A stretch of DNA of 11,305 bases from Promethearchaeota archaeon. Lineage in GTDB: Archaea; Asgardarchaeota; Lokiarchaeia; Sigyniarchaeales; SOKP01. The notes under the pieces are model-generated. The model searched no databases and had not been told where the DNA came from. It worked only from the letters and a program-made list of their open reading frames with translations. Shown piece after piece: positions 1 to 11,305 of this stretch. Positions within the stretch are counted from its first letter, which is position 1. Every line of letters begins with the position of its first letter. The stretch is taken from assembly GCA_048938445.1 (NCBI GenBank), contig JBHLME010000140.1, forward strand, positions 1 through 11,305. Direction: 5' to 3'. The position numbers and the translations under genes were made by a program.

Positions 1-293
1 TGTTAAAAAAAGTAAGAATTAAACTATTATATATAAAAAACGGTATTATTTGCTTTTTCAATTGTCAAAATTATCTTTTTTTTTAAGATATTTTACTTTA
101 ATTATAATAAAAAATGCATTAATCATTAAAATATCATAATATTGATTTATTTTTTATCATATTATTAACCCAAACTAATAGTTCGTTATTATGATACATT
201 TTAAATTATGTTTGGGTCATATTTATTAATGTTGAAGAACAAAGGAAATATTAGGGAATAAAATTAAATAAACTCTTTTTTAGTATTGAAATC

Positions 294-578
294 ATGAAAA
301 AAAAGAAAGAAAAAAAAAAAAGTAAAAAAAGCATTTATGATGAATTTTTAGAGAGTTTTGAGAAACTTAATGAAAGTTTAGAAATGATGACCTCAGTGTC
401 AAAATCTTTACGATCTACTGCTGAAATTTTAAGAGGTCCAGTTCAATCTAATATAGCAAATTCAAAAAAAAATATGAAATCAACTGCTGAAATTATTAAA
501 GATATTAAATCCACTCAAATAAAATTGAAAGGATCAAAATATTCCATTTTTGATGCGGATGATTTAAATATCATTTAA
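294..578 (+). CDS. Small hypothetical protein, Lys-rich N-terminus plus predicted amphipathic helices; resembles the linker of the 456-aa kinase
   Basis: 94-aa ATG ORF in very AT-rich DNA, where long chance ORFs are rare. Internal STAEI repeat. Residues 2-46 align by eye with residues 154-197 of 6838..8208. Confidence 0.7.
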   Translation: MKKKKEKKKSKKSIYDEFLESFEKLNESLEMMTSVSKSLRSTAEILRGPVQSNIANSKKNMKSTAEIIKDIKSTQIKLKGSKYSIFDADDLNII

Positions 579-852
579 ACAGTTGCATTGGATATTCTTT
601 AAAACTAAGTTATTTATATCCATTAATTTTTGACATTAAAATAAATATTTAAATATGAATTCTTTCATAATATAAGAAGTATTAACCAAGATAATCTTAA
701 TATTTCATTGACACCCCTAATATGGGTTTGGAGGATATAAAAATTTTTATAATAATTTTAATATGATTGAAAAAACCATTTACTCCTTTAAAAAATGTGA
801 TTTATAAGATAATCAGGTATATTGTTGAATAATTGAAAGAATTATAAAGTTA

Positions 853-857
853 GAGGG
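853..857 (+). promoter_or_regulatory. Possible Shine-Dalgarno-like site of the large kinase
   Basis: GAGGG 3 nt before the ATG at 861 in otherwise G-poor DNA. Spacing is short. Confidence 0.3.
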
Positions 858-860
858 CTC

Positions 861-3800
861 ATGACATCATTGGACATTATAGACACTTCTGAGAATTTAA
901 AAGACAAATTGGCAAGGATTTTGCTGGATAACATACATTGTATTGCTTTACTTCTACAACGAGAAACTAGGGAAATAATAGCTACAAACAGATATGGTTT
1001 GGAGGCAGGAGCCGTCGTAGGAAAAACTTGTTATGAAAGTTGGTGTAAACACGAAGAACCTTGCTCTTGGTGTTTAGCTCCAGAACTTTGGCAGACAGGT
1101 AAGGACCAAAATATAGAAGTTAACGATTCAGGCACTATCTGGGATGCATATTGGATTCCAATAACTGAAAATTTATACCTTCATTATGCATTTGACATTA
1201 CGAAAAAAAAAGAAAAAGAGCAAAAATTACTTCAATCCACAGAAAAATATTTACATTTATATGAAAATGCACCTCTTGGTTACCAATCTCTTGATGAAAA
1301 GGGCAATATTTTAGAAGTTAATAAAGCATGGCTTGATTTTTTCGGATATTCAAAAGAAGAAATTATAGGAAAATGGTTTGGTGAATTATTACCCTTAGAA
1401 TATCGTGAAATATTTAAGGAAAAATTTGAAGAATTTAAAAAAATCTGTTCGGTTGACGGTGTAGAATATGAAATTGTGAAAAAAAATGGAGAGCCTGCAA
1501 ATATCATATTTTATGGAAGAGTCGGATATGATAACAGCGGAAATTTCAAGCAAACTCATTGTATATTTCAAGATATAACAGAAAAGAAACAGATTGAAAA
1601 TAAATTAAAAATATCTGAAGAAAAATATCGAAATATATTTGAAAAATCTTCAAATGCGATAGTCCTACTCGACTTAACGGGAAAGATTATAGATTGTAAT
1701 TTTGCCACCGAGAGAATGTTTGGATATTCTCTTGATGAATTGATCGGTCAAAACTACTTGGATTTACCTATTTCTTCGGAAAGCACGATATCTACATTAA
1801 AAAAGAGGTTTCATGCAATAACTAATAAGGACGATTTAGAACCGCAAGAAATGAGAATTATAAGAAAAGATGGATCTAATGCAATTGTTAGATCAGCAAT
1901 CACTTACATCACGATTGGAGAAAAAGAATACTTTCAAGCTATAATTGAAGATATAACTGAAAAGAAAATTGCTGAACAAAAAATAAGAGAATCCGAAGAA
2001 AAGTACCGTCAATTATTTGAAGAAAACATAAACGGAATTATTTTAATAAATTTAAAAGGTCAAATTGTTAATTGGAATTCGACTATTGAAAAATTATTTG
2101 GTTATAAACGAGAAAATTATATTGGAAAAAGTCTTATTGAATTCCCCGGAATAGATCAAAAATTCATTCCCATAATTAAAGAAAGACTTGAAAAGTATTT
2201 TTTAGGTGAAAATTTAGATCCTATAAGGATTAAGGTATATAAAAAAGATGAAACCCCTGCTTGGATAAATGCTCAATCATCATTGGTGGATGTTGGTAAA
2301 GAACAGAATCTCCAAATAATAATTGAAGATATCACGGATTTAGTTAATGCTGAAATGATTTTAAAAGAATCTGAAGAAAGATATCGTGAACTTTTTGAAT
2401 CTTCCCCAGTAGGAATTTGTATAGCAGATTATGAGGGAAATATTTATGCGATTAACGAAGTGATGACAAGAATAACGGGTTATGACCTTGAAGCATATAA
2501 AAAAATACCATTGAGCTCTACTTATTTCAATCCTAATGATCGTATTGAAGTATTGAATATATTAAAAAATAAGGGTGAAGTCAAGAACCATGAAGTATTG
2601 CTTAAACGAGGGGATGGAAAGATATATAATGCTCTACTGAATATATCATTAATTAAAATACAACAGAAGGATTTTATTCTCACAAATGTGCAAGATATTA
2701 CAGAAATCAGAGAGACAATTAAAAAATTAGATGAATCCGAGCAGAAATTTAAAAATATAACCGAAGAATCTCTATTAGGAATATGTATCATTCAAGATAA
2801 TGTTTTAAAATATGTTAATCAGAATTTAGCAGACATGTATGGTTATACAATTGAAGAAATGTTAAACTGGGAGCCAGGTGAATTATTGAAAACAGTGGCC
2901 CCAGAGTCATTAGAGGTGGTCATGGAACAATTAAGAAAAAAACAAGCTGGAGATTCTGATGTTATTCATCAATATAAAATTAAAATTATCCGAAAGACTG
3001 GGGAGCACATTTGGGTAAATAATCTATCTAAAACGATTGATTATGAAGGATATCCTGCCGATTTAGTCACTCAAATTGATATCAACGAGCAGATAATAGC
3101 AGAACAAGATTTAAAAAAATCTGAAGAAAAATTCCAAGAACTTGCTGATCAATATAAAATGCTATTGGAATCCATAACAGATGGAGTATATGCTTTGAAT
3201 CGAGATTGGTTCTATACTTTAGTTAATAAAAATGCTGAAAAGCTAGTAAACATGCCCGTGGAAAGATTATTAGGAAATAAAATAACGGATGTATTTCCTG
3301 GAATTGAAAAATCGATATTTTTCAAGACATATGAACGAGTAATGAATACTGGAAATGCAGAACGTGTTTCAGAAGCTTTCGTTCTCCCTGATGGCATGGA
3401 AGGATATTATTCTGTAAGCGTTTATCCGACAAATGAGGGAATCATTTGCATTGCTAGTAACATAACGGAAGAAAAAAGGATAGAAAAGAAGTTAAATGAA
3501 GAAAGAGAAAAAGCAGAGCTATATTTAAATATAGCTGGAGTTCTCTTAGTAGCTCTTGATAGAAATGGAAATATTACTTTATTAAATAAAAAAGGATATG
3601 AACTGTTAGAATATGAAGAAGGAGAATTAAGTGGAAAGAATTGGTTTGAAAATTGTTTACCTTTTGCTGAGAGAGAAAGGGTTAATGATTATTTTAAGAA
3701 TCTCATGAATGGAGAAATGGATATTATCCCTTCTTACCAAAATCCAATTATTAGTAAATCTGGTGAAGAAAAGCTAATAGCATGGTCTACTGTTTTATTT

Positions 3801-6785
3801 AAGGATGAAAAGGGAAATTTTTCTGGTCTTTTGAGTGCTGGGGAAGATATAACCGCAAGAGCAAAAGCAGAAAATAGTTTGAAGGAATCCGAAATGCGTT
3901 TAAGAAATCTTTTCGAAACCATGGAAGAAGGAGTTGTTTTAATTAATTTGGATGGTCAAATAGTTGAAGCAAACTCCGCGGCAGAAAAGATACTTGGTAT
4001 TAAACGCTCAGTAATTAAAGAAAGAAATTATATCAGCCCCAAATGGGAAATTTTTAATCCAGATGGAAGTCCAATGCCTTTAGAGGAGATGGCTGGACCT
4101 CGAGCAATGAAAGAAAAAAGACCTATCAAAAATACCATTATGGGCTTAAAACGTTCAGATGATACAATTGTTTGGCTCAATGTGAGTGCTTCTCCTCTAT
4201 TAGATGTGTATGGAGGACTTCTCGGAGTGGTTGGAACGTTCGCAGATTTTACCGAATTTAAAAAGGCAGAGGAAAAAATTGTTGAACATAGTAAAAATCT
4301 TGAAATATTAAATCATATCATCATTTCTGGAAATAATGCAAGTAATTTATCTTTTTTATTGAATGACATATTAGATTTTACGCTAAAATTGATGGGAATG
4401 GATGGAGGTGCAATATATTTAGTAGATGAACAAAAATATTTTGCAGATATTGTATCTTTTAAAGATCTACCGAGAGATTTTATAGAGAAAGTCAAGAAAG
4501 TGTCAATATATGAAAGTCCATATCGGAATGTTCTTATAGATGGCGAGCCAGTTTATACTGAAACCATTATGAATAAACATCAAAATCTTATTAAAGAATA
4601 TAAATTTTGTGCAATTGCTAGCGTTCCATTATTTTCAAGGAATAAGGTCATAGGTTCTTTAAACATTGTTTCAAAGAGTCGAAAGATTATCACTCAAAAT
4701 GAAAAAAGTTTGCTTAGCTCTATCGGAAGGGAAATTGGTACTTTAGTCTCAAAGATGCAAGTTGAGCAATATTTAATAGAATCTGAAGAAAAATTTAGAA
4801 CACTTTCTGATCAATCTTTAATGGGTATTGGTATTGCCCAAGATAATAAATTTAAATATGTTAACCAAGCGTATGCAGATATTTTTGGATTTACAGTAGA
4901 AGAAATGATGAATTGGGGAATCGAGGATGGAATTAAAACAATTCATCCAGAAGATAGAGATTTTGCTTTAGAACAGTTAGAGAAAAAACAAAAAGGTGAT
5001 CCTGACGTAATCAACCATTATAATTATCGAGGAATCAAAAAATCAAGTGATATTATTTGGATTGACCAATATTCTAAATCAATCTTGTACGAAGGAAGAC
5101 CTGCAGACTTGATCACTATTATAGATATAACTGAACGTAAGAAGAACGAAGAAAAATTAAAAAAATCTGAAAAAGAATTATCAATAAGAAATAAAATTCA
5201 AGACATTTTTCTAAAGTTTCCAGATGATGAGATGTATTCAGAAATTTTAACTTATATATTAAAAATTTTTGAGAGTAAATATGGAACTTTTGGTTATTTT
5301 AATGAAAATCAAGATTTGATACAAGCTTCACTTACAGGAGAAGTTTGGGAAGAATGCAAAATGAAGAATAAAAATCTTATTTTTCCAAAAGACACTTGGC
5401 ATCAAAATATATGGGGGAGCATCATTAATGAAAAGAAAGCTTTAACTAGAAATAATCCATTTAAAGTACCAAAAGGTCACGTGGTTATTAAGAATTTTTT
5501 GGGAGCACCTATTATTCATAAAAATAAAATTATTGGAGTTATAACAGTTGCAAACAAGGAAGAAGGTTATATTGAAAACCATTTAAAATTATTAGAGTTA
5601 ATATTAGAGATACTTGCTCCAATATTACATGAAAGACTAGAAAAAGATAAATTTCAGCATTTGCGTAAAGTTGTTGAGAAGCAACTTGAAGCTTCGGAAG
5701 AAAAACTCCAAAATGTAATTAATAATATAGCGGATGTCTTAATTGAAATAAATGAGGAAGGTATTATTACCTTCATTAGCCCTCAAATTAAAGATATAAT
5801 TGAATATGATTTAGATAAAGTTATAAACAAAAATATTTCTGAATTTTTTCATCCAGAAGATATCTCATTGATTAAGGATGCGATTAAAAGCTCAAAAATC
5901 ACCTTAAGTGAAGTTAACATTGATATAAAAATCATACATAAAAAAGGATATTTCCTTCCCGTTTCTATTAAAGGTAGTACAAAAGAGATCAATGATAATA
6001 TTAAATTCACTGGAGTTTTAAGAGATATATCTGAAAGAAAAAGAATGGAAGAAATGATGGAAAAAGAAGTAATCCAATTAAAAGAGCTTGAAGATTTGAG
6101 AAATGATCTCATTAACAGAATTTCACATGAATTCAACACTCCATTAAATTTAATCTTATCTGGTTCTCAACTTTTATCCCAGGATTACAAGGGGGAACTT
6201 TTAGATGATCCATTTGAAATTATCGATATCATTAATAAAGGAGCATATCGATTGAAAGACATGGTTGATAATTTATTAACTGCTTTTAAAATTGAATCCT
6301 ATGATTTAAGTTTAAATATCCAAGAATTAAATTTAACGGCAATAATCAAAAGTTGTATAAGTTTAATATTACCTCAAGCAAATTTGAGGAATATTTATAT
6401 AACTACAGAATTGCTTAAGGAATTGAAAGGAAAATGCGATAAGAATTTGATTAAAAAAGCAATTTATAATATTTTATCAAATGCAATTAAAAATACTCCA
6501 CCTAAAGGAAATGTTTTCATTAAAACAATAGAACATCGTAGTCATATAGATATAATAGTTGAGGATTCAGGTGTTGGAATAACAAAAAAAGAAAAAATGA
6601 AATTATTTCAAAAATTTGGAAAAATTGAAAGGTATGGAAGGGGATTGGATGTCGATATCGAAGGGCCTGGAATGGGATTATATATTGCAAATGAGATTGT
6701 TAAACTCCATAAGGGTGAAATCTTGGTAAACTCAAAAGGAAGGTTTAAGGGAAGTAGTTTTACTATTCGTTTGTACAAGGCATAA
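861..6785 (+). CDS. Soluble multi-sensor histidine kinase: 9 PAS - GAF - PAS - GAF - PAS - HisKA - HATPase_c
   Basis: Repeated PAS units starting (S)EEKYR..FE-like and ending D-I-T-E-like (11 counted). Two GAF-like segments (ASVPLFSRNKVIGSLNI; LGAPIIHKNKIIGVITVAN). H-box ISHEFNTP (H1756), N-box NILSNAIKNT, G1 DSGVGI, F-box LFQKF, G2 GPGMGL. No transmembrane segment seen. Confidence 0.95.
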   Translation: MTSLDIIDTSENLKDKLARILLDNIHCIALLLQRETREIIATNRYGLEAGAVVGKTCYESWCKHEEPCSWCLAPELWQTGKDQNIEVNDSGTIWDAYWIPITENLYLHYAFDITKKKEKEQKLLQSTEKYLHLYENAPLGYQSLDEKGNILEVNKAWLDFFGYSKEEIIGKWFGELLPLEYREIFKEKFEEFKKICSVDGVEYEIVKKNGEPANIIFYGRVGYDNSGNFKQTHCIFQDITEKKQIENKLKISEEKYRNIFEKSSNAIVLLDLTGKIIDCNFATERMFGYSLDELIGQNYLDLPISSESTISTLKKRFHAITNKDDLEPQEMRIIRKDGSNAIVRSAITYITIGEKEYFQAIIEDITEKKIAEQKIRESEEKYRQLFEENINGIILINLKGQIVNWNSTIEKLFGYKRENYIGKSLIEFPGIDQKFIPIIKERLEKYFLGENLDPIRIKVYKKDETPAWINAQSSLVDVGKEQNLQIIIEDITDLVNAEMILKESEERYRELFESSPVGICIADYEGNIYAINEVMTRITGYDLEAYKKIPLSSTYFNPNDRIEVLNILKNKGEVKNHEVLLKRGDGKIYNALLNISLIKIQQKDFILTNVQDITEIRETIKKLDESEQKFKNITEESLLGICIIQDNVLKYVNQNLADMYGYTIEEMLNWEPGELLKTVAPESLEVVMEQLRKKQAGDSDVIHQYKIKIIRKTGEHIWVNNLSKTIDYEGYPADLVTQIDINEQIIAEQDLKKSEEKFQELADQYKMLLESITDGVYALNRDWFYTLVNKNAEKLVNMPVERLLGNKITDVFPGIEKSIFFKTYERVMNTGNAERVSEAFVLPDGMEGYYSVSVYPTNEGIICIASNITEEKRIEKKLNEEREKAELYLNIAGVLLVALDRNGNITLLNKKGYELLEYEEGELSGKNWFENCLPFAERERVNDYFKNLMNGEMDIIPSYQNPIISKSGEEKLIAWSTVLFKDEKGNFSGLLSAGEDITARAKAENSLKESEMRLRNLFETMEEGVVLINLDGQIVEANSAAEKILGIKRSVIKERNYISPKWEIFNPDGSPMPLEEMAGPRAMKEKRPIKNTIMGLKRSDDTIVWLNVSASPLLDVYGGLLGVVGTFADFTEFKKAEEKIVEHSKNLEILNHIIISGNNASNLSFLLNDILDFTLKLMGMDGGAIYLVDEQKYFADIVSFKDLPRDFIEKVKKVSIYESPYRNVLIDGEPVYTETIMNKHQNLIKEYKFCAIASVPLFSRNKVIGSLNIVSKSRKIITQNEKSLLSSIGREIGTLVSKMQVEQYLIESEEKFRTLSDQSLMGIGIAQDNKFKYVNQAYADIFGFTVEEMMNWGIEDGIKTIHPEDRDFALEQLEKKQKGDPDVINHYNYRGIKKSSDIIWIDQYSKSILYEGRPADLITIIDITERKKNEEKLKKSEKELSIRNKIQDIFLKFPDDEMYSEILTYILKIFESKYGTFGYFNENQDLIQASLTGEVWEECKMKNKNLIFPKDTWHQNIWGSIINEKKALTRNNPFKVPKGHVVIKNFLGAPIIHKNKIIGVITVANKEEGYIENHLKLLELILEILAPILHERLEKDKFQHLRKVVEKQLEASEEKLQNVINNIADVLIEINEEGIITFISPQIKDIIEYDLDKVINKNISEFFHPEDISLIKDAIKSSKITLSEVNIDIKIIHKKGYFLPVSIKGSTKEINDNIKFTGVLRDISERKRMEEMMEKEVIQLKELEDLRNDLINRISHEFNTPLNLILSGSQLLSQDYKGELLDDPFEIIDIINKGAYRLKDMVDNLLTAFKIESYDLSLNIQELNLTAIIKSCISLILPQANLRNIYITTELLKELKGKCDKNLIKKAIYNILSNAIKNTPPKGNVFIKTIEHRSHIDIIVEDSGVGITKKEKMKLFQKFGKIERYGRGLDVDIEGPGMGLYIANEIVKLHKGEILVNSKGRFKGSSFTIRLYKA

Positions 6786-6837
6786 ACAATTTATTCAATA
6801 AATTAAAATAGTCTAATTTTTTTATTATTAACGACTG

Positions 6838-8208
6838 ATGTATGAAAAAGAACTGGAAAAAAGCGATTATTCATTAAAGAATGAGAATGACAAACTTTTT
6901 AACATTCTCGATTCTTTAGATGACGGAGCCTATATTGTTGATCAAGAATATAATATTAAATACCTTAATCCTTCTTTTGAGCGCCAATTTGGACCATTTA
7001 AAGGCAAAAAATGCTATGAATATACTAACAACCGTTCAAATCCATGCCCTTGGTGTAAAATTCAAGAGGTTGTTGATGGTAAGACAATACGATCTGAGAG
7101 ATATTATGAGAAGAATTTAAAAAAATATGAATTAATAGACACCCCTCTAAGAAATTCTGATGGATCAATATTAAAGTTAAAATTATTGAAGACCATATCA
7201 GATTGCTCTCCTCTTGATAAGAGATCACATCAATTAAAAATTCAAAAAGCAGGACTCAAAGATACTCATAAAAAGGGAGATAAACCTAAGGACATAAAAA
7301 ATAAAAAATTAAAACGAAAAAGTAAATATCCAGATGTTCAAGCTGTAGAAATATCGCAAAATCTAAGTAAAACAATAGAACTCCTTTCAAACAGTTCAAA
7401 ATCATTGAAATTAAGTGTTTCAAATTTAGCTCTAGGCTATATAGGTGAAATAAACAGACAACGAAGAATCAATGAATTAATCAGAAATGAACTCATTAGG
7501 TTAAAAGAAATTGATAAAATCAAAAATGACATGATAAGACGAATTTCTCATGAGTTGAAAACACCCTTGAGTTCGATATATACAACATGTGATCTTTTAT
7601 TACATAATTATAGAGAACGAATGGACTCGAAAATATTAGATTATATCAAAGTTATAAACCATGGTGGTGAAAGATTAAAAAAATTAGTTGATAATTTATT
7701 AGACTTATATTTAATTGAATCTAATGAATTAAGCTTAGACTTAGAATATAATGACATTATCTTAACAATCAATCATTCAATAAATAATATCAGAGATTTA
7801 TTGAAAAAAAGAAATCATGAATTAAACATTAACCTTCCAGATACCTTATCATTCAAATTTGATAAAATTAGAATTGAACAATGTATAACGAGCATTCTTG
7901 AGAACTCCATCAAATACACTCCTAAGGATGGTCAAATTTTACTCGAATTGATTGAAAAGGGAGACTTTCTTGAAATTATTATAAGTGATTCAGGCATAGG
8001 GTTTACTGAAAATGAAAAAGAACAATTGTTCAAACGATTTGGAAAAATTGAGAGATATGGACAAGGAATGGATATAGATGTGGAAGGTCCTGGATTTGGA
8101 TTATATCTTGCAAATGAGATTATTCACTTGCATAAAGGTCAAATTATCGTTGAGTCTCAAGGACGCAATGAAGGTTCAACTTTTAAAATATTATTACCTG
8201 TATTATAA
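6838..8208 (+). CDS. Soluble histidine kinase: Cys-motif PAS - basic/coiled-coil linker - HisKA - HATPase_c
   Basis: N-terminal PAS (ILDSLDDGAYIVD..IKYLN; CY..PCPWC). H-box ISHELKTP (H238), N-box ILENSIKYT, G1 DSGIGF, G2 GPGFGL. Starts 52 bp after the first kinase. Confidence 0.93.
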   Translation: MYEKELEKSDYSLKNENDKLFNILDSLDDGAYIVDQEYNIKYLNPSFERQFGPFKGKKCYEYTNNRSNPCPWCKIQEVVDGKTIRSERYYEKNLKKYELIDTPLRNSDGSILKLKLLKTISDCSPLDKRSHQLKIQKAGLKDTHKKGDKPKDIKNKKLKRKSKYPDVQAVEISQNLSKTIELLSNSSKSLKLSVSNLALGYIGEINRQRRINELIRNELIRLKEIDKIKNDMIRRISHELKTPLSSIYTTCDLLLHNYRERMDSKILDYIKVINHGGERLKKLVDNLLDLYLIESNELSLDLEYNDIILTINHSINNIRDLLKKRNHELNINLPDTLSFKFDKIRIEQCITSILENSIKYTPKDGQILLELIEKGDFLEIIISDSGIGFTENEKEQLFKRFGKIERYGQGMDIDVEGPGFGLYLANEIIHLHKGQIIVESQGRNEGSTFKILLPVL

Positions 8209-8212
8209 TTCC

Positions 8213-8218
8213 TTTTTT
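8213..8218 (+). terminator. Possible archaeal-type oligo-T terminator after the kinase pair
   Basis: T6 run 4 nt after the stop codon, in the 50-bp gap between convergent genes. T-runs are common at this base composition. Confidence 0.3.
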
Positions 8219-8258
8219 ATCAACTTGTTTTAATAAATAAATAAATTTTTCAAATTAA

Positions 8259-9098
8259 TTATAAATAATTTTCTAAAACATTAAAATCAGTCAATTTAAA
8301 TGGTTTTAAAAAGAAGCCATCAGCCCCAGTGTCGCTAATCTTATTTTTTACTTCATTTGGCGATACTGCCGTAATATAATAAACAGGAGTTTTAATTAAT
8401 TCTTTTCTCGTTTTTATAACCTTACATATTTCATATCCACTAATATCCGGTAAGATGATATCTAATAAAATTATTTTTGGAGTTGTTTTTTCTAATAGTT
8501 CAAGAGCTTCCTTTCCCGTTGTAGCTTTTTCGCATTTATATCCCTTGGTCTCTAAAATGTCAGTTAATAGTTGTATGGTGTACTCATCATCATCTACAAT
8601 TAAAATATCATACTGGTCTTTTCGATAAAGTTGTTTAAAATCCATGCTGTTTATTCTTTCTTCAAGATCTACACTTTTTTCGAATATACTTCTAATTTTT
8701 AATAAAACATCCCAACTTAATTCATGTTTATAATCCTGCATTAAAAGTTCAGAAAATCCTTTAATAGTTGTCAACGGTTCTTTTAAATTAAATGTAATAT
8801 TTGACAAGTTCTCAAATTGAGGTAATTTCTTTTTAAAATCCATATAAAAATTAACACTCTCTCTAATTAATTTTGATAATGTAATGATATTGTTTTCCCT
8901 CGCAAAATCTTGCCACTCATTTTTATCCTTTTCATCTATCAAAATACTAATTCTTTCTCTTTTATCAACGTAGACCTTTTCTCCTTTCTTCCATTTTTTA
9001 AATCCTTCTGTAATATTACCATGCCATATCGCTTTCTTTCCAGTCTCTTTCTCATATTTTTCCATCAATTCTGTTCTTGCATTTTCTTCAGAAATCAT
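8259..9098 (-). CDS. Response regulator with RHH-like domain, His-less HisKA-like segment and C-terminal receiver domain
   Basis: Receiver motifs intact: ILIVDDD, LLDIILPDISG, YITA, FLKPF. HisKA-like ITFNLKEPLTTIKGFSELL. RHH-like RISILIDEKDKNEWQDFARENNIITLSKLIRESVNFY. The ORF track starts at TTG 9107; the in-frame ATG at 9098, preceded by GGTG, is preferred. Confidence 0.9.
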   Translation of the reverse strand: MISEENARTELMEKYEKETGKKAIWHGNITEGFKKWKKGEKVYVDKRERISILIDEKDKNEWQDFARENNIITLSKLIRESVNFYMDFKKKLPQFENLSNITFNLKEPLTTIKGFSELLMQDYKHELSWDVLLKIRSIFEKSVDLEERINSMDFKQLYRKDQYDILIVDDDEYTIQLLTDILETKGYKCEKATTGKEALELLEKTTPKIILLDIILPDISGYEICKVIKTRKELIKTPVYYITAVSPNEVKNKISDTGADGFFLKPFKLTDFNVLENYL

Positions 9099-9174
9099 CA
9101 ACACCAAATGAATTTATTTAGGAGATAATAAATAATAACTAAACTAATAATAGACTGATCTAATAAAAATGTAT

Positions 9175-9204
9175 TGAGGGTTATCTAAAAATAGATAACC
9201 CTCA
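9175..9204. repeat. Perfect inverted repeat, 13-bp arms and 4-nt spacer (operator or hairpin)
   Basis: TGAGGGTTATCTA-AAAA-TAGATAACCCTCA, between the MCP stop codon and the regulator start. Confidence 0.9.
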
Positions 9205-9278
9205 GAGGCTAAATAATATTACATACTGGGAATTATCTTTATAATAATTATTATTTTTTTTTTTAATCGTAAAATTTT

Positions 9279-9286
9279 AAAAAAAA
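9279..9286 (-). terminator. Oligo-T tract directly after the MCP stop codon (archaeal-type terminator candidate)
   Basis: Minus strand reads TAA then T8. A T-tract occupies the same position after the paralogous MCP. Confidence 0.45.
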
Positions 9287-10843
9287 TTATTTAAATCTTG
9301 AAATTCTTGAAGTTTTAAAATTTGAACCACCATTATTCTTTAGGTTTCTTTGACTCTGAGTTAATTTTTGCTTTAATTCTTCAGCTACTGCACCAAGTTT
9401 ATTTGCTGTTGCACTGACTTCTTCCATCGAACTGGTTTGCTCTTCGGTTGATGAGCTTATACCTTCCATTCCAGCAGTGGTTGCTTCAATTTTATCAATT
9501 ATTTCGATGATTTTACTGCCCGTGCTTTTTACTGAATTTTTTGATTCTTCTGCTAACTTTCGAACTTCTTCTGCCACTACCGAAAAACCTCTTCCGTGCT
9601 CACCTGCTCTACCAGCTTCAATGCTTGCATTTAAAGCCAATAAATTCGTTTGCTCTGATATGTTCGTGATGATGTCCATGATTTCCTTGATATCTCCTGC
9701 TGAAGCCATTACTTCCTGGCTATCCTGTGAAATATCTTGAGCGGTCACGGCAATTTCTTCGGAGGCCGCATTCACTTCACTCGCACTGGCCGCTAACTCT
9801 GTTGCCATGCTTGCAACGTCAATACTTGTCTTCGTGCTAACCTTAATGATTCTATCCATGCTATCAGTAACTCGCTTAATGCTAGTAACCGTTGGAACTG
9901 CGACGATTATTCCAAGCGCGATGCTTGCTATCAAGACAACTAAAATAATTCCAAATGATGTTATCGCGATTATATTTGCAGCATTGACAGCTTGGGTTGT
10001 ATTTGCTGCTACATATGTTTCTACACTTGATAATTCCGTGTGGAGTTCTTCCTCATTAGACTCAATTACCATATCTAAGCTATGGCGTCGATCATGCAAG
10101 TCAAAAATACCCGTGCCGATAGCTGTTATCAATGGTTGGAAGTTAGTATCATGCCAAGAGTCTAAAGCCACTACTATTTCAGTTGCATTTGCGTCAGGGT
10201 CCGTGTTTAAATTAGTGATTAGAGCGTCAAAGTTCACTAAATAAGTAGTAAAATCAGCACGAAGCGCACTTCTCTCTTCATTTGAATCAGATCGAAGATA
10301 TTCCTCGACTAAAAATATTTGTTCCATCAGTTCCGCTTTTAATAATGAAGCATTTGCTCTTGGATACATCGAATCTTGATAATTGATTAACAATGTAATG
10401 TTAACTTCTTGTGTCTCGTGTTCCTCAATGATTTGATGTAAACTAGCATTAATCATGTCCAAGGTATTGAAAGCACCTGAACTATTAGTAATTGTATTAT
10501 AGACAATTTGAGCATGATTCAGAATTTCATCGATTTCAAACTGTTTTTCTGGGAGCATTAATTCGATGTTACTCAAGTGACTTGAAAAATCGGAAAAGGC
10601 CGAATTAAGTTCATTTTTTGTACCTTCTACTTCTCCAACGATATACTTATGATATAATAACATCATATTTTCCATATCCGTGATTGCTTCCATTGTATTA
10701 TCCGCAACAACCATTTCATGGGAAGTAATTTCAGTAAGAGAGACATTTAGAGAATTTACTTGCATGAGGCCTACGATGCCTATTATGGCAGCAATGATCA
10801 TCAAGAAACCAAACCCTATACTCATTCGTTTACCAATATTCAT
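9287..10843 (-). CDS. Methyl-accepting chemotaxis protein (2 TM, about 260-aa helical extracellular sensor, short signalling domain)
   Basis: Hairpin-tip motif [40 protein letters not shown]. Hydrophobic TM1 (about aa 8-27) and TM2 (about aa 292-316). Methylation-consensus-like [10 protein letters not shown] and [10 protein letters not shown]. Confidence 0.95.
9335..9436 (-). repeat. Paralogous coding repeat, copy 1 (copy 2 at 11204..11305)
   Basis: 90 of 102 nt identical by hand alignment; both copies encode the same 34 aa. Confidence 0.9.
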
Positions 10844-10853
10844 ATTATTTATA

Positions 10854-10858
10854 ACCTC
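10854..10858 (-). promoter_or_regulatory. Shine-Dalgarno-like site of the MCP gene
   Basis: GAGGT on the minus strand, 10 nt upstream of the ATG at 10843. Confidence 0.45.
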
Positions 10859-11145
10859 AAATTATAATTTATTTATTATTAAATTATGGCTTTTTATCAT
10901 TTTTTATGATAATGAATGCCATTTTATTACAAAGAAATAATAAAATATTTTTTATTTAAATGTTTTCATTAACATTATCTTTCGATTAATCTCATTTTAT
11001 TAATACAAATTAATGTTATAAGACAAATTTTACTAAAAAATTTAATTTCTTATTAAAAATTCCCTACTACCCAAATTCTTAATCTATGTTGAGAACTATT
11101 TAAATCGATTTTTAAAAAAGAGATTAATATTTACCACTATTTAAT

Positions 11146-11164
11146 AAAAAGAAAAAAAAAAGAA
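11146..11164 (-). terminator. Oligo-T tract after the second MCP stop codon
   Basis: Minus strand reads TAA-TTC-T10-C-T5. Confidence 0.45.
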
Positions 11165-11305
11165 TTATTTATATCTTGAAAAAACAGGTTTAGAACTACT
11201 TTTATTTTTCAAGTTTCTTTGACTTTGAGTTAATTTTTGCTTCAATTCTTCGGCAACAGCACCTAGTTTATTCGCAGTCGCACTGACTTCTTCCATCGAA
11301 CTGGT
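11165..11305 (-). CDS. 3' end (46 aa) of a second, tandem methyl-accepting chemotaxis protein; continues beyond the window
   Basis: Manual translation: [46 protein letters not shown]. The first 34 aa are identical to aa 470-503 of the 518-aa MCP. Confidence 0.9.
   Translation of the reverse strand, partial: TSSMEEVSATANKLGAVAEELKQKLTQSQRNLKNKSSSKPVFSRYK

Follow-up and report, generated by a model that had tools for sequence, protein, structure and literature searches.

The window analyzed here, the whole 11,305-nucleotide stretch at positions 1 to 11,305 of the Promethearchaeota contig JBHLME010000140.1, encodes on its reverse strand a 282-residue response regulator (8259..9107, stop codon included) that is read from a TTG at position 9107. 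An N-terminal basic motif, a ribbon-helix-helix (RHH) segment, a DHp (HisKA) helical hairpin without an ATPase domain, and an intact C-terminal receiver (REC) follow one another along the chain. We propose, with a probability of about 0.6, that the protein is a dimeric RHH transcription factor controlled by phosphorylation, in which the DHp of this copy serves as a scaffold. The original prediction had recognized the open reading frame, the motif, the RHH pattern, a HisKA-like hairpin lacking a HATPase, and the receiver residues, all of which are present, and had correctly placed the RHH at aa 50-90 (nt 8838-8960); its reading of the domain order is borne out by Pfam, profile, and ESM Atlas matches.

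The further suggestion that the regulator represents an undescribed type does not stand. A sentence in Galperin et al. 2018 (J Bacteriol 200:e00681-17, PMC5847659) already notes lokiarchaeal RHH-HisKA-REC regulators on the basis of four proteins; that sentence is silent on the N-terminal motif, the status of the His, and the gene neighborhood. The homologue P0012 (63% identity, 95% coverage) bears a Lokiarchaeum sp. GC14_75 accession and the marine-sediment name LCGC14_0492060; a search of the supplement to PMC5847659 did not place it among the four proteins. An Asgard kinase paper from 2023 includes in a table a 34-kDa 'HisKA; REC; CheY' protein beside a PAS kinase (PMC10343646). A full-text literature search returned no further mention of the architecture and no experiment on any member. 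The architecture is known but uncharacterized, and the regulator is a His-lacking variant of an already noted family.

Receiver domain and family distribution

The identity of the receiver (aa 168-274; 8286..8606, reverse strand) is unambiguous. Pfam PF00072 (Response_reg) matches these residues with an E-value of 1.8e-24 and 86.5 bits against a cut-off of 30.2, and matches to PDB sequences of DivK, PhoP, Spo0F, and CheY (E 5e-16 and weaker) are confined to aa ~165-277. The active-site set is complete, comprising D172, D173, the phospho-acceptor D216 (codon 8460-8462), T246, and K268. In an alignment of 121 homologues, from which all residue counts out of 121 given below are taken, D216 and K268 are invariant (121/121), D173 is retained in 120, and position 246 is Thr in 115 and Ser in six. 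Pfam and NCBIfam matches relating to OmpR/PhoB-, NarL/FixJ-, NtrC-, and LytTR-class regulators span REC only (aa ~164-278), and the regulator is assigned to none of these classes, in which an N-terminal REC is joined to a wHTH, HTH, or LytTR output domain.

A whole-protein search returned 954 homologues at E<=1e-3, the best 120 of which are 267-295 aa long and 48-100% identical to the regulator over 92-100% coverage. A scan of one genome per species yielded 32 loci (L001-L032) that encode the N-terminal part too. By record title, 20 of these belong to Promethearchaeota, two to Hermodarchaeota, one to Thorarchaeota, one to Hodarchaeota, and six to 'uncultured archaeon'; the remaining two, labeled Anoxychlamydiales (L001) and Bathyarchaeota (L015), are probably binning errors. 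Two loci with short frames of 5 and 117 aa (L023 and L029) were dropped, leaving 30 for analysis. The corresponding ESM Atlas family cluster has 374 members, 99% of them from Archaea. Judged from these sequence searches, the regulator belongs to a large response-regulator family that is specific to Asgard archaea. Among 46 mid-length representatives of 50%-identity clusters from a search with aa 1-105, REC was found in 29, HisKA alone in four, and nothing in 13. This frequency of REC, the full coverage in the best 120 of the 954 homologues, and the near-invariant linkers point to selection on the whole architecture.

Ribbon-helix-helix segment

The RHH segment (aa 49-92; 8832..8963, reverse strand) consists of a strand with the sequence ERISILID (aa 51-58), helix A at about aa 59-72, a turn, and helix B beginning at about T76/S78; these limits were taken from the sequence pattern and the alignments. 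Its assignment as an RHH is suggested by several independent lines that are weak one by one and agree with each other. When 30 family members were scanned singly against Pfam, five matched RHH_1 (best E 0.0023), two RHH_9, one RHH_3, one NikA-like, and two DUF6290; RHH_1 is thus the family most often matched by single members, with all five matches below library-wide significance. Among 5.8 billion proteins searched with a profile, a stand-alone protein of 49 aa (P0257) came up after fragments of the family itself; it lies above the Pfam cut-offs for RHH_9 (26.2 vs 23.4 bits) and RHH_1 (22.1 vs 20.5 bits) and aligns with the family profile in hhalign with a probability of 96.5% (E 7.4e-10, 43 columns). 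For aa 47-96, the structural neighbors of the ESM Atlas model include CopG, NikR, RHH_1, and ParD clusters (TM by query 0.75-0.83): six of the seven non-self rows carry one of these names, and the seventh is an unnamed 60-aa protein. An Atlas feature search gave no usable match for the RHH segment or for the N-terminal motif.

Conservation within the segment is high at K62, S78, and V85 (121/121 each), W65 (120/121), and R82 (119/121). Strand position 54 is variable, being Asn in 37 homologues, Gly in 27, Ser in 17, Met in 15, and Val and Cys in eight each, and variation among paralogues is what would be expected at a specificity-setting residue. The linker that joins the RHH to the DHp (aa 93-103; 8799..8831, reverse strand) has a mean conservation of 0.37 and is nearly constant in length; in an alignment of the regulator with 29 genome loci (alignment A3, 30 sequences), insertions in it are restricted to L013 and L027.

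ParD-type and CopG-type families are among the closest relatives of the RHH, as would suit an antitoxin-like or plasmid-type repressor that acts outside two-component signaling. Such a role is very improbable for the regulator, whose neighbors are kinases and an MCP-like transducer with no toxin gene among them, and whose RHH is always fused to DHp-REC within the family.

DHp hairpin and its phospho-acceptor position

The helical hairpin preceding the receiver extends over about aa 104-158 (8634..8798, reverse strand). For the regulator alone, the Pfam HisKA family (PF00512) gives an E-value of 0.008 and 16.6 bits, below the cut-off of 26.9, and a precomputed PF00512 assignment is present in 30 of the 120 listed homologues. 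In a profile comparison, aa 47-165 of 30 family members aligned along both helices with the DHp of histidine kinase chains 4jas, 3dge, and 2c2a (E 3.8e-07 to 1.9e-05), which supports a genuine DHp ahead of the receiver. Pfam scans of the whole protein and of aa 1-165 detected no HATPase_c in the regulator, and the latter scan gave only subthreshold HisKA and chance matches. REC begins eight residues past the second DHp helix. Longer proteins of 495-2000 aa in which aa 47-165 are part of a fusion were sought and not found; as evidence this is weak.

Across the family, the H-box reads S-H-[DE]-L-K-E-P-L-T in consensus. The regulator has Phe at the phospho-acceptor position, residue 106 (codon 8790-8792), where the 121 homologues have His in 101 cases, Tyr in 12, Gln in four, Phe in two, and Arg and Ser in one each. 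The two Phe cases are the regulator itself and its database twin, and in alignment A3 the His is missing from the window copy alone. The earlier term 'pseudo-DHp' is therefore apt for this copy and fails for the family. The state of position 106 (His or non-His) changes at least eight times on a FastTree tree made without the H-box columns; the His was thus lost repeatedly. Its absence from 20 of the 121 homologues fits a mainly structural role for the DHp, and these comparisons indicate that the His is dispensable for whatever holds the family together, though it is kept by most members.

The same data bear on an alternative in which the DHp is the working part of the protein, either as a Spo0B/ChpT-style transferase that passes phosphate between D216 and His106 or as a HisKA-type phosphatase that dephosphorylates other regulators, with the RHH secondary. 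Spo0B and ChpT are DHp-type phosphotransferases. The prevalence of His in the family and the alignment of the H-box and both helices with real kinase DHp domains are in keeping with such chemistry, and a passage in PMC5847659 on HATPase-less archaeal HisKA proteins raises phospho-acceptor, phosphotransfer, or phosphatase roles for them. The evidence is better for the His-bearing majority than for the copy in the window, which has Phe106 in place of the phosphorylatable His on DHp helix 1 that a Spo0B/ChpT-type His phosphotransferase would need; the 20 members without His and the eight or more changes on the tree also speak against it. Phosphatase motifs of HisKA proteins have Thr or Asn four residues past the His (H+4). 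Both adjacent kinases have Thr at this position, whereas Glu occupies it in 109 of the 121 homologues (aa 110 in the regulator, codon 8778-8780, reverse strand). Finally, the RHH and the N-terminal motif are conserved as much as the DHp or more. A phosphorelay or phosphatase function as the main role of the regulator is unlikely on this balance.

N-terminal basic motif

The N-terminal motif (aa 15-46; 8970..9065, reverse strand), with the consensus [YF]E.ETGK.AIW.G..T..F..W..GE.IY, surpasses every other part of the protein in conservation and basicity (mean commonest-residue share 0.79, net charge +4). W28, T33, W39, and G42 are each present in 121/121 homologues, so that the motif first picked out in a single sequence is real. 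When 1.84 billion representatives were searched exhaustively with aa 1-105 in HMMER, 118 matched at E<=0.001; many of these matches are confined to aa ~10-50, and the motif occurs singly or in tandem copies. Eight stretches of P0206 are matched by the motif; P0188 contains Rpb1 domains 4-5 (an RNA polymerase fragment) followed by three C-terminal copies; P0235 is a Ras-like GTPase carrying two copies; and P0197 is a NosD/beta-helix membrane protein with two copies. In P0198 (415 aa), an Arf-like GTPase is followed by the motif and then by a receiver of the regulator family, with neither RHH nor DHp. The first six rows of Atlas neighbors of aa 8-48 are all Promethearchaeota clusters, comprising the regulator family, ABC_tran, LRR, AAA_5/CbbQ, and hypothetical proteins. 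Conversely, the regulators at nine of the 30 loci (L017-L022, L024, L025, and L032) are short (226-254 aa), begin at the RHH strand, and lack the motif. Its presence in unrelated proteins and its absence from these nine loci mark it as an optional, mobile, and lineage-restricted module of ~30 aa. In these searches it was seen almost only in Promethearchaeota, and it belongs to no named family.

These findings invite a reading in which the RHH is a protein-protein or dimerization module and the output runs through the N-terminal motif, docking on a shared partner or binding nucleic acid non-specifically. The conservation and basic charge of the motif, its recurrence in an Rpb1-type fragment, GTPases, ABC and AAA ATPases, and LRR proteins, the GTPase-motif-REC fusion P0198 that dispenses with RHH and DHp, and the Gly residues found at outward strand positions of the RHH in a large subgroup would all agree with it. 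The nine loci that drop the motif yet keep RHH-DHp-REC show the motif to be dispensable, unlike the RHH core, and every named structural or sequence neighbor of the RHH segment is a DNA-binding RHH family. We therefore hold this explanation, too, to be rather unlikely.

A profile built from 31 motif sequences matched no Pfam family and gave no meaningful PDB match. The N-terminal domain of RNase H1 (PF01693) was considered for the motif and rejected: a single P0188 repeat reached 19.1 bits against a cut-off of 21, and this was not repeated in the 31 motif instances. P0203 and P0239 are also among the motif-bearing proteins. In P0149 (315 aa), a receiver at aa 115-222 comes straight after the N-terminal part and is followed by a tail of ~90 aa.

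Gene neighborhood

Two tandem genes for cytoplasmic histidine kinases lie on the forward strand beside the regulator. HK1 (861..6785) encodes a protein of 1974 aa that has two GAF domains and numerous PAS domains, and is located just 5' of HK2 (6838..8208), which encodes a 456-aa PAS-HisKA-HATPase_c kinase. HK2 and the regulator are convergent, with 50 nt separating their stop codons. Upstream of the regulator on its own strand is the gene for an MCP-like transducer (9287..10843; 518 aa, 4HB_MCP and MCPsignal), and the regulator frame starts 180 nt downstream of it.

The proposed pairing with the adjacent kinases is supported by gene order in the other genomes. A HisKA/HATPase_c kinase, in most cases with multiple PAS domains, is the first gene downstream of the regulator in 20 of the 30 loci (18 convergent, two co-directional), and in five further loci (L007, L008, L010, L012, and L028) it follows after one small ORF, so that a kinase is present within two genes in 25/30. 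No convincing Pfam family was matched by the small ORFs that separate the two genes in L007, L008, L010, and L012. The cores of the neighboring kinases are 37-57% identical to that of HK1 and 35-50% identical to that of HK2. In the two closest loci, L001 and L006, the core of HK1 is the best match to the kinase adjacent to the regulator (57% and 48%, respectively); the original partner may therefore have been HK1, with HK2 joining it later by insertion or duplication.

The upstream side is more varied. Among the 30 loci, an MCP gene is found upstream only in L001, L006, and the window; other upstream genes encode small GTPases (L017, L018, and L020), CheB (L021), and a kinase (L024). A co-directional gene for a protein of 475-484 aa is located directly upstream in four loci (L002 4339-5766, L005 93-1547, L009 154-1596, and L026 4436-5872); it matched no convincing Pfam family, giving only weak coiled-coil-type matches.

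The spacer between the MCP gene and the regulator contains a perfect 13-bp inverted repeat with a 4-nt spacer (9175-9204), which is positioned 66 nt upstream of the TTG. Its core recurs in related palindromes of the same spacer in L001 (4083-4109) and L006 (5669-5695), and hence in all three MCP-linked loci (3/3); one arm position differs on both sides between the window and L006. The palindrome is G+C-rich within a very A+T-rich spacer, and its RNA folds as a strong hairpin. Rfam searches of the window, L001, and L006 returned no family. Elsewhere in the window, no half-site was found beyond the pair itself, a single site with two mismatches being within chance. The palindrome may represent an operator, a hairpin akin to a terminator, or an element of small-RNA type. 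As the sole candidate for a site read by the regulator, it counts, through its conservation in the MCP-linked loci, in favor of the proposed DNA-binding role.

Proposed mechanism

A DHp domain exists obligately as a four-helix bundle of two chains, and an RHH domain can read DNA solely as a dimer. In the proposed mechanism, two regulator chains would pair through a DHp four-helix bundle and thereby join their RHH halves into one two-stranded, DNA-reading ribbon; with the RHH fused to the DHp through a linker of near-constant length, the RHH dimer would be stable. The DHp of kinases is arranged so that its helix 2 finishes close to where helix 1 starts. Given this arrangement and the HK853-type profile match, the receiver, which follows DHp helix 2 across a short linker of constant length, is predicted to sit near the top of the bundle, beside position 106 and the RHH, where cognate receivers dock. 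HK1, HK2, or both would phosphorylate D216, and an altered packing of the receiver on the DHp and RHH would change DNA binding and hence transcription. The sequences show the domain composition, its conservation, the intact receiver site, the absence of His and ATPase, and the recurrent kinase neighborhood; dimerization, DNA binding, the choice of partner kinase, and the direction of the phospho-switch are inferred. In this copy, with Phe106, the DHp would serve only as a dimerization and docking scaffold.

Several results weigh against this mechanism. The RHH fold is deduced from remote homology and from an Atlas whole-protein model with a pTM of 0.43 and a mean pLDDT of 0.75. The RHH segment of the window by itself matched no Pfam family, and in a search of the PDB with the RHH profile the top match, ORF56 (2k9i/3ft7), was marginal at E 0.098, while the third, ArtA (3gxq), had an E-value of 0.9; we take both to be RHH proteins. 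Many homologues have Gly at outward strand positions (KKGIGILV type; G54 in 27/121), unusual for a ribbon that reads bases. That 83% of the family keep His106 and 109/121 have Glu at H+4 suggests that the DHp performs chemistry in most members, which a scaffold leaves unexplained. Five of the 30 loci have no kinase within two genes. The distance of the palindrome is fixed relative to a conserved T-run block past the MCP gene and not relative to the start of the regulator (66, 232, and ~305 nt in the three loci), which could point to an RNA or terminator element instead of an operator. Lastly, the regulator DHp is 25.1% identical to the DHp of its own neighbor kinase and 23.7% identical to those of other kinases (permutation p 0.015), a comparison limited to 17 of the 30 loci, the search pattern having failed to find the DHp in the remaining regulators.

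The last result could also be accommodated by a kinase modulator, in which the DHp, lacking an ATPase, would tune the output of the adjacent kinase by heterodimerizing with that kinase's DHp or titrating it, resembling the RetS-GacS arrangement. The conserved adjacency to a coherent group of kinases, with cores 37-57% identical to that of HK1, is compatible with such a role, as is the slightly greater similarity of the regulator DHp to that of its own neighbor in the 17 pairs. The effect is tiny, however; the regulator and kinase DHp sequences within the window are only 20-24% identical, and neither the RHH nor the intact receiver would be explained. We judge modulation of this kind to be distinctly improbable.

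A broader and decidedly speculative model, doubtful as it stands, would make the family a single-chain signaling hub instead of a plain transcription factor. The receiver would dock on its own DHp beside the RHH, and in His-bearing members phosphate would shuttle between Asp216 and His106, combining a DNA-binding output with a relay or sink; the N-terminal motif would in addition act as a Promethearchaeota-specific adaptor that ties regulators, small GTPases, ATPases, membrane proteins, and the Rpb1-type fragment to a common partner or to nucleic acid.

If the phosphorylation-controlled RHH dimer is the correct description, its design illustrates a novel route to a repressor or activator that phosphorylation can switch, with an RHH held by a kinase dimerization bundle and natural His+ and His- variants. 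Because DNA-binding response regulators are rare in archaea (PMC5847659), the family may be the chief route by which the very large PAS-kinase repertoire of Lokiarchaeota-type Asgard archaea reaches transcription. With an abundant, tightly conserved, and kinase-paired family and with cultured Asgard strains, a direct test of the path from sensing to expression is feasible, in the archaea that are the closest prokaryotic relatives of eukaryotes. The most promising leads are the N-terminal motif, with its promiscuous distribution, and the family's natural range of members with and without the His.

Relation to known systems

The nearest described counterparts are the lokiarchaeal RHH-HisKA-REC regulators mentioned in PMC5847659, which have the same domain order and come from the same lineage; the regulator differs in having Phe at the phospho-acceptor position. 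As described in the same paper, FilR1 (wHTH-DUF1724-REC) and LtrR (HTH-REC) likewise place the DNA-binding domain first and the receiver last, the reverse of the order in bacterial regulators, and are paired with kinases. They use helix-turn-helix domains, whereas the regulator uses an RHH with a DHp dimerizer, and no sequence relationship to them was seen outside REC. Regulators of the NikR type also have an N-terminal RHH that is set by a C-terminal oligomerizing sensor, and NikR clusters are among the structural neighbors of aa 50-96. NikR senses nickel through NikR_C; in the regulator, the predicted sensor is the phospho-receiver and the predicted oligomerizer the DHp bundle.

Archaeal ATPase-less HisKA proteins and REC-(PAS/GAF)-HisKA regulators such as AF_1472, in the account given in PMC5847659, likewise combine a DHp that lacks a working ATPase with a receiver and are predicted dimers; unlike the regulator, the AF_1472-type proteins have no DNA-binding domain. 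The same absence distinguishes proteins of the Spo0B/ChpT type, and the regulator, lacking the His, is no His phosphotransferase. The HK853-RR468 pair (PDB 3dge) offers a structural guide: the DHp profile aligns with the kinase over both helices and the receiver matches the response-regulator chain 3dge_C, so that docking of the receiver beside the H-box is a plausible geometry. HK853 and RR468 are separate partners, whereas in the regulator both parts are in one chain, without the CA domain and without the His.

Other features of the window

The window has a G+C content of 29.3%. A tRNA scan found none. Ahead of HK1 on the forward strand is a small Lys-rich ORF of 94 aa (294..578) that has no significant Pfam family, its top match being HEF_HK with an E-value of 0.0067, under the cut-off. 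Other possible starts of the regulator are a GTG at 9104 and an ATG at 9098, and the database twin P0002, of 279 aa, begins at the latter.

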